From an uncultured Candidatus Rokubacteria bacterium (GTDB lineage Bacteria; Methylomirabilota; Methylomirabilia; Rokubacteriales; CSP1-6), in assembly GCA_963771355.1 (NCBI GenBank), contig CAVYTA010000007.1, positions 416,001 to 480,000 of the forward strand: a stretch of DNA of 64,000 nucleotides, written 5' to 3'. The stretch's first letter is position 1. Each line of letters starts with the position of its first letter. Position numbers and translations under genes: made by a program. Below, in pieces: positions 5,049 through 10,682 of this stretch. The notes below the pieces were generated by a model. The model searched no databases and was not told where the DNA came from. It worked only from the letters and a program-made list of their open reading frames with translations.

Positions 5049-6401
5049 ATGTCGCATCGGGTACTCATTGCGGACGATCTGGAGGCCTCGCGCAAGGGTC
5101 TGGCCGCGCTCGTCGCGACCTGGGGATACGAGGTCGAGGAAGCCGGCGACGGGCAGGAAGCGCTTGCGAAGGCCGCGGACTCGAATCCGGCCGTCGTCAT
5201 CACCGACCTGGTGATGCCGAAGCTGGACGGTCTCGGTCTGCTCAAGGCCGTGCAGGCCGAGCTGCCGTTCACCATGGTCATCATCATCACCGGGCACGGC
5301 ACCATCGAGACCGCGGTGGGGGCGACCAAGGACGGCGCCTACGACTACCTCACCAAGCCGGTGGACGTGGCGCGGCTCCGCCTCCTCGTGGAAAAGGCCA
5401 TCGAGAAGGGCGAGGCGCTGCGCGAGGTCAATGTCCTGCGCCGGCGCGTCAAGGCGGTGTGGGGGCACGGCCGCCTGGTGGGAACCAGCAAGGCCATGCA
5501 GGCGGTGTTCCGCCAGATCGATCTCGCCGCGCCGACCTCCGCCCCGGTCCTCATCGTGGGTGCGAGCGGTACCGGCAAGGAGCTGGCCGCGCAGACACTG
5601 CACGAGCTGTCGCCGCGGAGCCAGGGGCCCTTCGTGGCCGTCAACTGCGCCGCCATTCCCGAGACCTTGCTGGAGAGCGAGATCTTCGGGCACGAGCGGG
5701 GTGCCTTCACCGGCGCGCTGGAGCGCCGCATCGGCTGCTTCGAGCTCGCGCATCAGGGCACGCTCTTCCTCGATGAGATCGCGGAGATGAGCCCCCCGCT
5801 CCAGGCCAAGTTTCTCCGCATCCTCCAGGACGGTTCGCTCAAGCGTATCGGCGGCCGCTCGGAGATCAAGGTGGACGTGCGCGTGCTCGCCGCCACCAAC
5901 AAGGAGCCCGCGCACGGCCTCAAGGACGGCAGCTTTCGCGAGGATCTGTACTATCGGCTCAATGTCTTCACGCTCAGCCTGCCGCTGCTGCGCGCCCGGC
6001 GCGACGACATCCCGCTCCTCATCCAGGCGTTCGTCGAGGAGTTCGATGCCAAGTACGAGCGGAAGGTCCGCGGGGTGGACGAGGCCGCGCTGCGCCATCT
6101 GGTCGCGCACGACTGGCCCGGCAACGTGCGCCAGCTCCGCAACACCCTGGAACGCGCGGTCATTTCCTGCGCGGGCGAGCTCATCACCCCGGCGGACCTC
6201 CCCAGCGAGGCCGGTCCCGGGAGCGGCGAGGAGCCCCGCGCGAGTGCGACCCTCCCGGTGGGCGTGAAGCTCAAGGACGTGGAGCGCGAGGTGATCTTGA
6301 AGACGCTGGCCTCGGTGGGCAATAACAAGACGCGGGCCGCCGACGTGCTCGGCATCAGTCTCAAGACCCTTCACAACAAGCTGAACCGCTACGGCGTTTA
6401 G
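5049..6401 (+). CDS. Sigma54-dependent response regulator (NtrC/AtoC type: REC-AAA+-Fis HTH)
   Basis: TDLVMP phosphoacceptor, GASGTGKE Walker [21 protein letters not shown]-terminal HTH. Confidence 0.96.
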
Positions 6402-8555: not shown

Positions 8556-8582
8556 GAGCGTGCGGCTGGCGACGATTCGCCA

Positions 8583-8595
8583 TGTAAGGCTTACA
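8583..8595. promoter_or_regulatory. Palindrome TGTAAG-G-CTTACA, candidate enhancer (UAS) for the sigma54 activator
   Basis: Perfect inverted repeat 138 bp upstream of a -12 element; related copies at 9611 and 9632. Confidence 0.7.
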
Positions 8596-8705
8596 CGCGA
8601 CAGCGGTTCTTGCCCGGAAGCTGTCGAGAAAAGAAGAGGGCCGTCTGACCTCCTAAGTGTGTGACAAGTCGAGCCTTTCGTTAATAGCTCATCGTTCCCC
8701 CTCCC

Positions 8706-8721
8706 TTGGCACGAAGTCTGC
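8706..8721 (+). promoter_or_regulatory. Sigma54 -24/-12 promoter upstream of the OmpA-family gene
   Basis: TTGGCACGAAGTCTGC = TGGCAC-N5-CTGC with exact GG-N10-GC spacing. Confidence 0.8.
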
Positions 8722-8792
8722 CACTGTTCCCACAGAGCCAGCGTATCCTCGATCTGAACGAGTGGGATCCATCCCAGCAAGGAGGAAGTGAA

Positions 8793-9521
8793 ATGAAACA
8801 CCTGACCGCTTCTCTGATCCTCTGCACCGGCGTCGCCCTCTTGGGCTCCGCGTGCGCCACCAAGGGCTATGTCCGCGAGCAAGTCGGCAGCGCCGAGACC
8901 AAGCTGTCCACCCGCGCGGAGGGGACGGAATCGGCGCTCAAGGACACCAACGACAAGACGGCCGCCAATGCCCAGGCCATCGATGCCAGCCGCAAGGACA
9001 TCCAGGGGCTGGATGGCAAGGTCCAGGGGCTGGATGGCAAGGTCGTCCAGGTTGGGACCCTCGCGGCCGACGCGAAGAAGCAGGCCGAGTCGGCGTCGGA
9101 GGCGGTCCGTGACACGGATTCCCGCCTGCAGGCGCTGAACACGCGGATGACCAACCGCAACAAGTTCGCCATGGTCGAGACGAAGTCGGTCTATTTCGAC
9201 TTCGACAAGGCCGCACTGCGGGACGAGGGAGTCAGTGACATCGAGGAAGTGGCGAAGGCGCTGAAGGCCGATCCCAATGCGGTGGTGGAGCTGCAGGGCT
9301 TCGCCGACGCGCGCGGCGCCGAGCGCTACAACTATCAGCTTACCCGCGAGCGGGTGGACGCGGTCGCGCGGTACCTGGTGCAGCGCCACGGCATCGAGCT
9401 GCGCCGCATCCACATGGTCGGTATGGGCAAGGTCGTCCTGGCCGCCGGTGAGCGGGGCGGCAACGAGGTGTACGCCAAGGCCCGCCGGGTGGACATCAAG
9501 CTTCTGTCTCCCCAGAGCTAA
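8793..9521 (+). CDS. OmpA/Pal-like peptidoglycan-binding lipoprotein with N-terminal coiled coil
   Basis: RBS AGGAGG; lipobox LGSA-C; VYFDFDKAAL, LQGFADARG, YNYQLTRERVDAV, RRVDI. Confidence 0.9.
   Translation: MKHLTASLILCTGVALLGSACATKGYVREQVGSAETKLSTRAEGTESALKDTNDKTAANAQAIDASRKDIQGLDGKVQGLDGKVVQVGTLAADAKKQAESASEAVRDTDSRLQALNTRMTNRNKFAMVETKSVYFDFDKAALRDEGVSDIEEVAKALKADPNAVVELQGFADARGAERYNYQLTRERVDAVARYLVQRHGIELRRIHMVGMGKVVLAAGERGGNEVYAKARRVDIKLLSPQS
9001..9044 (+). repeat. 21-bp in-frame tandem duplication (heptad QGLDGKV x2)
   Basis: tccaggggctggatggcaagg repeated directly. Confidence 0.85.
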
Positions 9522-9541
9522 GCGCTCGCGAGACGAGCACT

Positions 9542-9575
9542 CCCGGGGCTCCGCGCTCTCGCGCGGGGCTCCGGG
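9542..9575 (+). terminator. GC-rich hairpin after the OmpA-family gene
   Basis: cccggggctccgcgc-tctc-gcgcggggctccggg (two G.U pairs); weak U tract. Confidence 0.5.
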
Positions 9576-9610
9576 GTTCGCGGGTGGGTTCGCGCGTTTC
9601 GTACCCACCA

Positions 9611-9644
9611 TGTAAGGCCTACATTGCGGGATGTATCCCTTACA
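9611..9644. promoter_or_regulatory. Tandem TGTA-N5-TACA sites (candidate UAS pair)
   Basis: TGTAAGGCCTACA (9611) and TGTATCCCTTACA (9632), 21 bp apart. Confidence 0.7.
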
Positions 9645-9752
9645 TCCGCCTGGTCATGTCTGCCTGCGCCCGCCGGCTCGCGCATCCGAGCGAACGAGAG
9701 CCAAATGCTTGACCTGCCACAGTTTCTCCCCCCTCTGCCATGGTTCGGAGAA

Positions 9753-9768
9753 TTGGCATTCCCCCTGC
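9753..9768 (+). promoter_or_regulatory. Second sigma54 -24/-12 promoter
   Basis: TTGGCATTCCCCCTGC, GG-N10-GC. Confidence 0.65.
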
Positions 9769-9780
9769 TCAGAGGACAGC

Positions 9781-10188
9781 ATGGCCTTCGAACACCCCAC
9801 TATCCTGGTGGTCGAGGACGAGCCGCATAGCCGCGAGGGCCTCCGGGACCTGCTGGCCGGTCGTGGCTATCTCGTGGAGACGGCCGCGGACGTTCCCCAA
9901 GCCATCAGCCAGGTGAACGCTCATCAGTTCGCGGGCGCCATCATCGATCTCCATCTACCGCCCGTTCACGAGGTCATGGTGACGGGCTGGGACATCGCCG
10001 ATATGTGCCGCGCCTGCACGCCGGATATCGCCGTGCTCTTCGTCAGCGCTCAAGGGGGCGCCGAGGTAGTAGACCGCGCGGAACGCCTCGGGCACGCCGC
10101 CTTCCTGGAGAAGCCGATCGATCCCGTCCGACTCGCGGCGGCGCTCGGCCAGCTCGGCCTCAAGGCCCAGGCGTGCGACACCCCCTGA
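9781..10188 (+). CDS. Single-domain response regulator (REC only)
   Basis: ILVVEDE, IIDLHLP, FVSA, FLEKP. Confidence 0.88.
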   Translation: MAFEHPTILVVEDEPHSREGLRDLLAGRGYLVETAADVPQAISQVNAHQFAGAIIDLHLPPVHEVMVTGWDIADMCRACTPDIAVLFVSAQGGAEVVDRAERLGHAAFLEKPIDPVRLAAALGQLGLKAQACDTP

Positions 10189-10277: not shown

Positions 10278-10682
10278 ATGACCGCCCTCGGCATGGCGCT
10301 GATCGTCGCCGCCGCGGTGATCATGGGGTTTCTGATGGCGGGCTGGGGGCCGCGCGCCGAATTGGAGGCCATGCTTGCGCCGGTGATCGCTCCCGCGTCG
10401 CCGGCGCCGGCGCACGCGAAGGTCGTCGCGGAAGCGCCCGCTCCGGCCGACGTGGAGTCCTGCAACCAGTCCGCGAAGGCGCAGGCGGGCGACAAGACCA
10501 TCGAGGTGGTGAAGGACGGGGCGGCCGAGGCGGGATGGGGGCCTGGCCGAGGCGGGGACATCGGTGGTATGGTCGTCGCGGCGGCGGGCACACTTCACGG
10601 GATCAACGAGCGGAAGAAGAACGATGCTCGCTACGTCGAGGCCTATCGCGCCTGCATGAAGGGGCGCGGGTTCAGTAGCTAA
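10278..10682 (+). CDS. Hypothetical membrane-anchored protein with short glycine zipper and Cys pair
   Basis: N-terminal TM, ESCNQSA...GGDIGGMVVAAAG...YRACMKGRGF; start uncertain. Confidence 0.6.
   Translation: MTALGMALIVAAAVIMGFLMAGWGPRAELEAMLAPVIAPASPAPAHAKVVAEAPAPADVESCNQSAKAQAGDKTIEVVKDGAAEAGWGPGRGGDIGGMVVAAAGTLHGINERKKNDARYVEAYRACMKGRGFSS

Follow-up and report, generated by a model that had tools for sequence, protein, structure and literature searches.

A conserved palindrome upstream of two sigma54 promoters in a Rokubacteria genome, predicted enhancer of an unnamed activator family

The locus and its two promoters

The window analysed here is a stretch of 64,000 nucleotides from an uncultured Candidatus Rokubacteria bacterium, corresponding to positions 416001-480000 of contig C7 in genome G000 (5,525,756 bp, 70% GC). 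It carries two sigma54 promoters, each preceded by a palindrome of the form TGTA-N5-TACA that is predicted to be the enhancer of a sigma54 activator encoded close by (Table 1). The genes of this regulator, of a membrane histidine kinase and of a predicted lipoprotein follow each other in this order and are tightly coupled, the kinase start being 1 nt past the regulator stop and the lipoprotein start overlapping the kinase stop as ATGA. Promoter 1 lies between the lipoprotein gene and ompA, and promoter 2 between ompA and the gene of a stand-alone receiver protein. The stem-loop behind the ompA stop codon likely ends the ompA transcript. After the receiver gene, positions 10278-10682 encode a 134-residue protein with a hydrophobic N terminus, two cysteines and no Pfam family, which is possibly co-transcribed with it.

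Table 1. Features around the two sigma54 promoters (window positions; IHF, integration host factor; HTH, helix-turn-helix)
Feature	Position	Strand	Details
Sigma54 activator (receiver, AAA+, Fis-type HTH), 450 aa	5049..6401	+	Pfam PF00072, PF00158, PF02954
Membrane histidine kinase (sCache_3_2, HAMP, HisKA, HATPase), 506 aa	6403..7923	+	Pfam
Predicted lipoprotein, 211 aa	7920..8555	+	Signal peptide ending VMSC, proline-rich linker, C-terminal three-helix domain
Putative enhancer of promoter 1, ATGTAAGGCTTACAC	8582..8596	.	Core TGTAAGGCTTACA at 8583-8595; centre 132 bp upstream of -12 C
IHF-like site, promoter 1, TAAGTGTGTGACA	8654..8666	-	2 mismatches; centre -61 from -12 C; weak
Sigma54 promoter 1, TGGCACGAAGTCTGCC	8707..8722	+	GG 8708-9, GC 8720-1; predicted start ~8733
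OmpA-family lipoprotein (peptidoglycan-binding domain), 242 aa	8793..9521	+	PF00691; target of promoter 1
16-bp stem-loop after ompA stop	9541..9576	+	Fold and blastn; single copy in genome
Putative distal enhancer site of promoter 2	9610..9624	.	Core TGTAAGGCCTACA at 9611-9623; motif scan, weight matrix
Putative proximal enhancer site of promoter 2	9631..9645	.	Core TGTATCCCTTACA at 9632-9644; centre 130 bp upstream of -12 C
IHF-like site, promoter 2, CAAATGCTTGACC	9702..9714	-	2 mismatches; centre -60; weak
Sigma54 promoter 2, TGGCATTCCCCCTGCT	9754..9769	+	GG 9755-6, GC 9767-8; predicted start ~9780, one base before ATG
Stand-alone receiver protein, 135 aa	9781..10188	+	PF00072; target of promoter 2

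An earlier note on this DNA had described the palindromes TGTAAGGCTTACA, TGTAAGGCCTACA and TGTATCCCTTACA, the IHF-like sites TAAGTGTGTGACA and CAAATGCTTGACC and both GG/GC cores. All of these strings are found where it had placed them, and the offsets that it had derived follow from the coordinates: 138 and 136 bp for the palindromes, 67 and 66 bp for the IHF-like sites, and a spacing of 21 bp within the pair.

Both promoter cores have the form GG-N10-GC, are close to TGGCAC-N5-TTGC and are kept in relatives; TGGCACGAACTCTGCC stands at promoter 1 in 4/4 same-genus loci that extend that far, and the genome has one RpoN box. As expected of an enhancer-dependent sigma54 promoter, a palindromic, conserved and often paired putative activator site is located about 80-150 bp upstream. 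The ATG of the receiver gene comes 13 nt after the -12 C in the window (9768-9783) and in G003, and 23-31 nt after it in three other genomes; that of mreB in G000 comes 15 nt after its -12 C (C6:2534941). These start codons are so close to the -12 element that the sigma54 transcripts of the receiver and mreB genes are expected to have no leader or almost none. Near-identical assembled contigs from four RNA libraries cover ompA in all cases; being assembled, they cannot show transcript starts. Such contigs end at 8774 (a loose end) and at 8748 in two studies, and those of a third study span promoter 1 itself.

Placement and conservation of the palindrome

Perfect copies of TGTA-N5-TACA number seven in the 5,525,756 bp of G000, an ordinary count given that the other spacers from 0 to 14 yield 0 to 18 copies each. 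Five of the seven precede one of 455 sigma54 candidates by 120-151 bp; of the other two, one is located in intergenic DNA at hemH and one within a gene. When 12 other spacers were tested, perfect sites were found in this upstream interval for N10 (four) and N12 (one) only. With at most one mismatch (126 sites), 11 site-promoter pairs are counted upstream versus one downstream. The enrichment upstream of -24/-12 boxes is seen again with a weight matrix trained on 21 sites from other genomes, according to which the consensus is better written RTGTAA-N3-TTACAY. Scanning 5,525,644 positions of G000 with this matrix returns six sites of at least 20 bits. Three of them are those of the window (25.2, 21.5 and 21.8 bits), scores that are not independent because the training loci include orthologues of both promoters; the sites before an ABC transporter and mreB were absent from the training set and are hence independent of it. 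Sites of at least 13 bits stand upstream of 8 of the 455 candidates, with none downstream, one at 300-380 bp and 0.15 expected. No partner scores 18-26 bp to either side of the promoter 1 site, which is thus single.

The genome also holds 18 copies of TGTA-N10-TACA, four perfect ones being upstream of sigma54 candidates, and several of these copies read TGTAGGNAAANCTTTACA (C1:148554, C6:97686, C6:97856, C6:218133). A second enhancer family is likely, in a genome with 24 activators.

Phylogenetic footprinting used 20 relative loci, 11 of which extend past the lipoprotein gene. With at most one mismatch, the promoter 1 site is retained upstream of the sigma54 box in 10 of these 11, G014 being the exception at that stringency, and the spacer between site and box diverges. 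The site pair of promoter 2 is conserved in 4/4 same-genus loci with a spacing of 20-21 bp, the mreB site is retained in 3/3 aligned relatives and the ABC transporter site in 1/1. At the scale of the phylum, motif and promoter occur together in 129 of 251 genomes, compared to 5 for a reversed-pattern control. Metagenome loci were also picked by the lipoprotein alone (80 loci, of which 26 were dropped as duplicates or too short). Among the 54 distinct loci kept, the motif is found within 170 nt of the lipoprotein stop in 42, and motif plus promoter in 37 (control, 0/17). Distances from motif to -12 element in these loci cluster near 115 and 131-137 bp. Pairing appears general, as 118 of 178 secondary sites are 19-23 bp from a strong site. 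These conservation and pairing counts overstate independence because the sequences are related.

The case for IHF is less direct. When the interval is shuffled 2000 times, a match as good as the IHF-like site is obtained in 33% of cases for promoter 1 and in 15% for promoter 2, so that each site taken singly is at chance level. At promoter 1, YAA-N4-NTGA is found at the same offset in G003, G006 and G001 and 4 bp closer in G010; at promoter 2, the best match has two mismatches in G004 and G001 and four in G003 and G006. When the 135 TGGCA-N7-TGC sites of G000 are considered, IHF-like matches on the minus strand form peaks at -38 and -49 relative to the -12 C, with 41 matches in two 10-bp bins and at most 6 in any other bin. 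These peaks would be a clear mark of IHF across the genome, in phase with the helix. The sites of the window, at -61 and -60, continue the 11-bp series of these peaks on the same strand. A small peak (8 matches at three mismatches) occurs at -62/-61 in 39 enhancer promoters of the phylum, and one of 14 matches at -49/-48 in the 37 lipoprotein-picked promoters; no clear peak emerges across the promoters (at least 119) among the matches listed in a collection-wide species scan. G000 has five genes of the HU/IHF family. A role of IHF at the two promoters is plausible.

With respect to the earlier proposals, the layout of enhancer and sigma54 core is borne out by placement, footprinting and phylum-wide conservation, and the two-turn spacing extends well beyond the pair in the window. 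The reading of TGTA-N5-TACA as an activator motif holds as far as the palindrome and its placement are concerned, but the motif needed rewriting as above and is not confined to this locus. The IHF-like sites do have the positions and the two mismatches ascribed to them, but they were put forward with too much assurance, considering their chance-level scores and partial conservation.

The activator, its sensor and rival explanations

The regulator encoded at 5049-6401 has the attributes of the NtrC family, namely a receiver with its aspartate, an AAA+ domain with Walker A and GAFTGA motifs, and a Fis-type HTH domain; Asp53, GASGTGK and GAFTGA are all intact on inspection. Its score is under the cut-off of every one of the best 25 NCBIfam families compared. 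The recognition helix of the family reads SLKTL[HY]N[KR]L and is carried by 2 of the 24 activators of G000. In a quick tree of AAA+ domains, 22 of 23 helix carriers group on one branch with two variant paralogues (SH-aLRT 86). Out of 17 listed loci having an activator-like gene within 5 kb in the collection-wide scan, 10 possess the helix in the form [SG][LI]KTL[YH]N[KR]L, including loci of Methylococcaceae, Marinobacter, Betaproteobacteria and Tectomicrobia, and the five genomes reached via such motif loci all encode it. Two other proteobacterial helix loci, not from Ralstonia, have no sites or weak ones. Within the phylum, HTH match and motif are both present in 120 of 251 genomes and both absent in 77, while 45 have the helix without a strict motif match, 16 of these belonging to one family, and the motif occurs with no helix hit in 9 (completeness 69-93%); the threshold for the HTH match, E <=1e-18, was set after a gap in E-values had been seen, the tables were transcribed manually, and related genomes do not count as independent.

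In G016, G017 and G024 the motif stands beside a family member, and no lipoprotein was found in the retrieved locus. Because the motif thus adjoins members for which no lipoprotein was found, it would belong to the family and not to the adjacent gene alone. Three nearly complete genomes, G014, G064 and G077, keep the motif with a single family member, which in G014 is of the regulator-kinase-lipoprotein type. Since the strongest sites flank the adjacent regulator and single-member genomes keep the motif, this regulator is most likely the protein that binds. The palindrome had been proposed to be the operator of the adjacent response regulator; this is still the most likely reading, but it is not a unique one, as a paralogue has the same helix, and its scope was too narrow.

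Two side observations concern other members. An island of G000 (C7:582000-626000; L024, L025, L030) contains two paralogous activators, one of them directly behind a sigma54 box, several kinases and csbD. Of its 12 sigma54 consensus sites, several form divergent pairs and most lack the motif. In G021, two weak sites and a sigma54 box precede the regulator gene itself (L014:252-380), which suggests autoregulation in that genus.

The sensory side of the system was approached by modelling. The lipoprotein has no Pfam family. Its last 85 residues, behind a linker of about 48% proline, are predicted to form a three-helix fold (pLDDT 91.8), for which a fold search gave no PDB match at E 0.001. A search of a protein atlas returned unnamed clusters only, commonest in Acidobacteriota. 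The complex of this domain with the periplasmic Cache domain of the kinase scores 0.80, versus 0.01 for the best of three controls; among solved complexes, 116 of 157 reach the mark for this score, as do 2 of 215 mismatched pairs, a calibration that is rough here because own alignments were used. At least 89% of contacts are shared between runs, and the pLDDT of the partner is at least 85. The modelled interface joins the nearly invariant VGYS loop and the Tyr93 region of the kinase to the conserved last helix of the lipoprotein, with residues invariant or nearly so on both sides. The model therefore supports docking of the three-helix domain on the Cache domain. Between HAMP and HisKA, the kinases of L065 and L110 have about 100 residues that look PAS-like and are missing from the kinase of this genus.

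Considering these data, it is probable that the palindrome situated 130-151 bp upstream of both promoters is the enhancer of the 5049-6401 activator, which would switch on ompA and the receiver gene when the kinase, contacted by the lipoprotein, phosphorylates it. In such a mechanism, a change in the envelope would alter the contact between lipoprotein and Cache domain. Judging from the targets, the signal may be envelope or osmotic/desiccation stress, read by the reach of the tethered lipoprotein across the periplasm. The kinase would then phosphorylate Asp53 of the activator. As in established sigma54 biology, activator dimers would occupy a single site, or two sites that share one face of the helix, then oligomerise after phosphorylation, and a DNA loop, probably aided by IHF, would bring the activator to the sigma54-RNA polymerase. 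The induced receiver protein may serve as a phosphate sink or a branch, possibly with feedback.

Other explanations may be envisaged. The main activator of both promoters could be the paralogue encoded at C7:616726-618081, or both proteins could share the sites. This paralogue shows the identical helix SLKTLHNKL, sits on the family branch of the tree and has its own weak site (10.1 bits) with a sigma54 consensus directly beside its gene; moreover, three paralogues exist in six of seven same-genus genomes. However, the strongest sites flank the operon of the adjacent regulator, the motif follows that operon in 42 of the 54 lipoprotein-picked loci, and it persists in single-member genomes, all of which makes this explanation unlikely. 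A more distant idea is that a protein of another kind, such as a LysR-type regulator or a repressor, binds the palindrome, the proximity of sigma54 promoters being secondary. The LysR-type site pattern T-N11-A indeed fits the palindrome, and nine genomes have the motif with no helix hit. This idea could also account for a strong conserved site pair at C5:240694-240728 (L021:3195-3229), which stands 10 nt ahead of the start codon of hemH and lacks a sigma54 consensus in its vicinity. On its other side, this pair faces a gene for a secreted protein with a GAAC-N18-GTT element, conserved in 4/4 genomes, which we take to be a promoter of the extracytoplasmic function (ECF) type. An activator can repress where its site covers another promoter, as NtrC does at glnAp1, and at C5:240694 the activator may repress hemH or touch the ECF promoter. 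The preference for about 115 and 131-137 bp between site and -12 element, the two-turn pairing and the co-occurrence with one activator helix across phyla all argue against another kind of protein, which seems very improbable. Finally, AT-rich palindromes might arise by chance in the intergenic DNA of a genome of 70% GC, and neither the genome-wide count of the motif nor the IHF-like sites depart from what chance would give. This explanation is scarcely credible in the face of the placement, footprint, phylum, matrix and lipoprotein-anchored tests, each having its own control; a chance origin is refuted for the palindrome and the promoters, the IHF-like sites remaining at chance level.

Assigning the site to the activator family, and within it to the adjacent regulator, has to contend with several of the observations given above: the helix and the site shared with or found beside the paralogue, the genomes in which helix or motif occurs singly, the limits of the co-occurrence tables, the members without a lipoprotein and the hemH pair. 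To these is added that most sigma54 promoters beside the two paralogues of the island, including one before csbD, have no good site.

The regulon and comparison with known systems

In G000, strong sites are found before ompA, the receiver gene, the ABC transporter gene and mreB. Weaker and uncertain ones precede the genes of superoxide dismutase (13.6 bits) and of a FeeM/GNAT protein (11.6 bits) and a receiver-trehalose phosphatase cluster (10.9 bits). From these sites, the regulon likely also includes the ABC transporter and mreB and, through the weaker sites, the receiver-trehalose phosphatase cluster and superoxide dismutase. Stand-alone receivers are a recurrent target in Methylomirabilota and Tectomicrobia, receiver proteins also being encoded behind the motif in L033, L039 and L065. 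Genes for trehalose phosphatase and synthase come directly behind the locus in G011, L198 and L238, and the synthase gene does so in G010. In other phyla, the first genes behind the motif encode BON, CsbD, PrkA, DUF883, DUF4398, OmpA and short-chain dehydrogenase proteins, with bactofilin elsewhere, according to a Pfam scan of 26 of 78 first open reading frames chosen in favour of plausible ones. BON/OsmY, CsbD, PrkA (YeaG), DUF883 (ElaB/YqjD) and trehalose synthesis are known general-stress genes of the RpoS, sigma-B and EcfG regulons. Many targets across phyla are thus stress-protection genes by annotation, whereas the targets with strong sites in G000 are ompA, the receiver, the ABC transporter and mreB.

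Two sets of proteins deserve mention beside these targets. In L198 (6912-9158), L238, L007 and L008, a trehalose-6-phosphate synthase of the GT20 type is fused to an N-terminal extension of about 270 residues, which begins with a hydrophobic stretch and matches no Pfam family, and a 63% identical gene exists in G000 at C1:75159. This fusion looks like a membrane-anchored, possibly sensor-gated synthase. In Pyrinomonadaceae loci (L037, L045, L055, L067 and others), a conserved protein of about 507 residues without a Pfam family is encoded behind motif and promoter. It is preceded by a leader of about 260-270 nt, leaving room for a small RNA or a small protein.

The closest functional parallel is QseE/QseG/QseF (GlrK/YfhG/GlrR) of Enterobacteriaceae, which likewise combines a kinase, an NtrC-type regulator and a lipoprotein in one operon. 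According to the accessible parts of the corresponding papers, the QseF system has a sigma54 promoter, activator sites more than 100 bp upstream and IHF sites (PMC3045617), and the lipoprotein QseG binds and activates the periplasmic part of the kinase QseE (PMC6075780, PMC12691602). The two systems nevertheless differ in their components. The site bound by QseF is TGTC-N10-GACA in the accessible part of PMC3045617, whereas the putative site here is TGTAA-N3-TTACA. The sensor of QseE is a four-helix bundle and that of the present kinase an sCache_3_2 domain. QseG forms dimers and consists of a globular helical part followed by a two-helix bundle at the C terminus, in contrast to the proline linker and three-helix bundle predicted here. 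The regulator scores 327.5 against the GlrR cut-off of 763. The gene order, regulator-kinase-lipoprotein, and the targets differ as well. The arrangement would thus work like QseEGF and does not belong to it.

AtoS/AtoC, ZraS/ZraR and NtrB/NtrC share the domain layout and the enhancer-loop mechanism, and provide the best NCBIfam matches of the regulator. Its scores are under the cut-offs for AtoC (452.9 of 714), NtrC (405.2 of 558.6) and ZraR (383 of 760); the Ralstonia member also misses the cut-offs of the AtoC, ZraR, NtrC and PrsR equivalogs, as the regulator does. The ZraR helix, ITRKTLLAKL, differs from that of the regulator. Members of the same family, at 44% identity, are found on the megaplasmid of Ralstonia solanacearum OE1-1, where an activator pair beside a sigma54 gene has SLKTLYNRL and groups with the other helix carriers in the tree. 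Close to them, a promoter with a perfect sigma54 box is preceded by a site pair at distances of 130 and 150 bp. By position, beside rpoN2, the OE1-1 pair was matched to Rsp1667/Rsp1668. In the part of PMC4676750 that was accessible (Table 3), the latter have neither name nor function and their targets are guessed. The closest solved HTH is that of an Aquifex NtrC-family activator, presumably NtrC1 (PDB 4L5E/4L4U; IPLRTLYKRL, E 3e-11). Its helix is not identical, and this domain can be used as a structural template.

The mechanism is classical, and the motif and regulon were not found in print within the searchable literature. The motif as a sigma54-activator site was not found in the accessible texts (including PMC4371752, PMC6589868 and PMC3162934), and it may be held by logos in figures and supplements, DAP-seq or SELEX atlases and subscription journals, which lay outside this scope. 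The main text of the Desulfovibrio regulome (PMC4641369) has no TGTA or TACA strings, its motifs being in figures and supplements. RhpR, the sole literature match to the motif strings together with sigma54, has a different spacer and was set aside. No regulatory paper on Rokubacteria with trehalose or sigma54 was found, nor any on the sets of stress-regulon terms.

A broader reading may be imagined, in which a general stress/desiccation response of Methylomirabilota, Acidobacteriota, Tectomicrobia and scattered Proteobacteria is governed by one and the same unnamed sigma54 activator family, acting through a single conserved enhancer. In soil lineages, this response would be triggered by a proline-tethered, periplasm-gauging lipoprotein on a Cache sensor, evolved independently of QseG. 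The types of targets are like those of the RpoS, sigma-B and EcfG regulons (trehalose synthesis, OsmY/BON, CsbD, DUF883, PrkA), whereas the promoters are of the sigma54 type with an upstream enhancer and stress induction is deduced from annotation. The collection-wide scan gave at least 119 loci with motif and promoter among the matches listed; titles and full flanks are available for 80 of the listed loci, and the titles refer to taxa of Acidobacteriota in 23 cases and to Methylomirabilota or Rokubacteria in 11. Several points weigh against this reading and also against the assignment of the site made above. Many of the listed loci are probably chance matches because the genes downstream are unrelated. 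In the proteobacterial class of G254, the pattern occurs in 10 of 101 genomes versus 8 for the control, which is background. The trehalose synthase gene of G000 has neither site nor sigma54 consensus in the preceding 2.7 kb, which, together with the lack of a good site at the csbD promoter, speaks against a simple stress reading; the stress signal itself is read from gene annotation. From such counts, the distribution of the motif outside the phylum appears patchy. The 19 motif matches in viral contigs are probably due to chance. The broader reading is therefore tentative, and somewhat more doubtful than not.

These results give a DNA site, a candidate protein and a list of targets to an activator family that has no NCBIfam name and whose Ralstonia members are listed without function. 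In a phylum with almost no regulatory genetics, any genome sequence allows the regulon to be read, and a heterologous host would allow it to be tested. If stress is indeed the signal, sigma54 would drive genes usually assigned to RpoS-type factors, and the kinase-lipoprotein pair would be a second case, unrelated to the first, in which a lipoprotein gates a sigma54 kinase. If the reading across phyla is also true, abundant and mostly uncultured soil bacteria would possess a sigma54 counterpart to the RpoS, sigma-B and EcfG responses.

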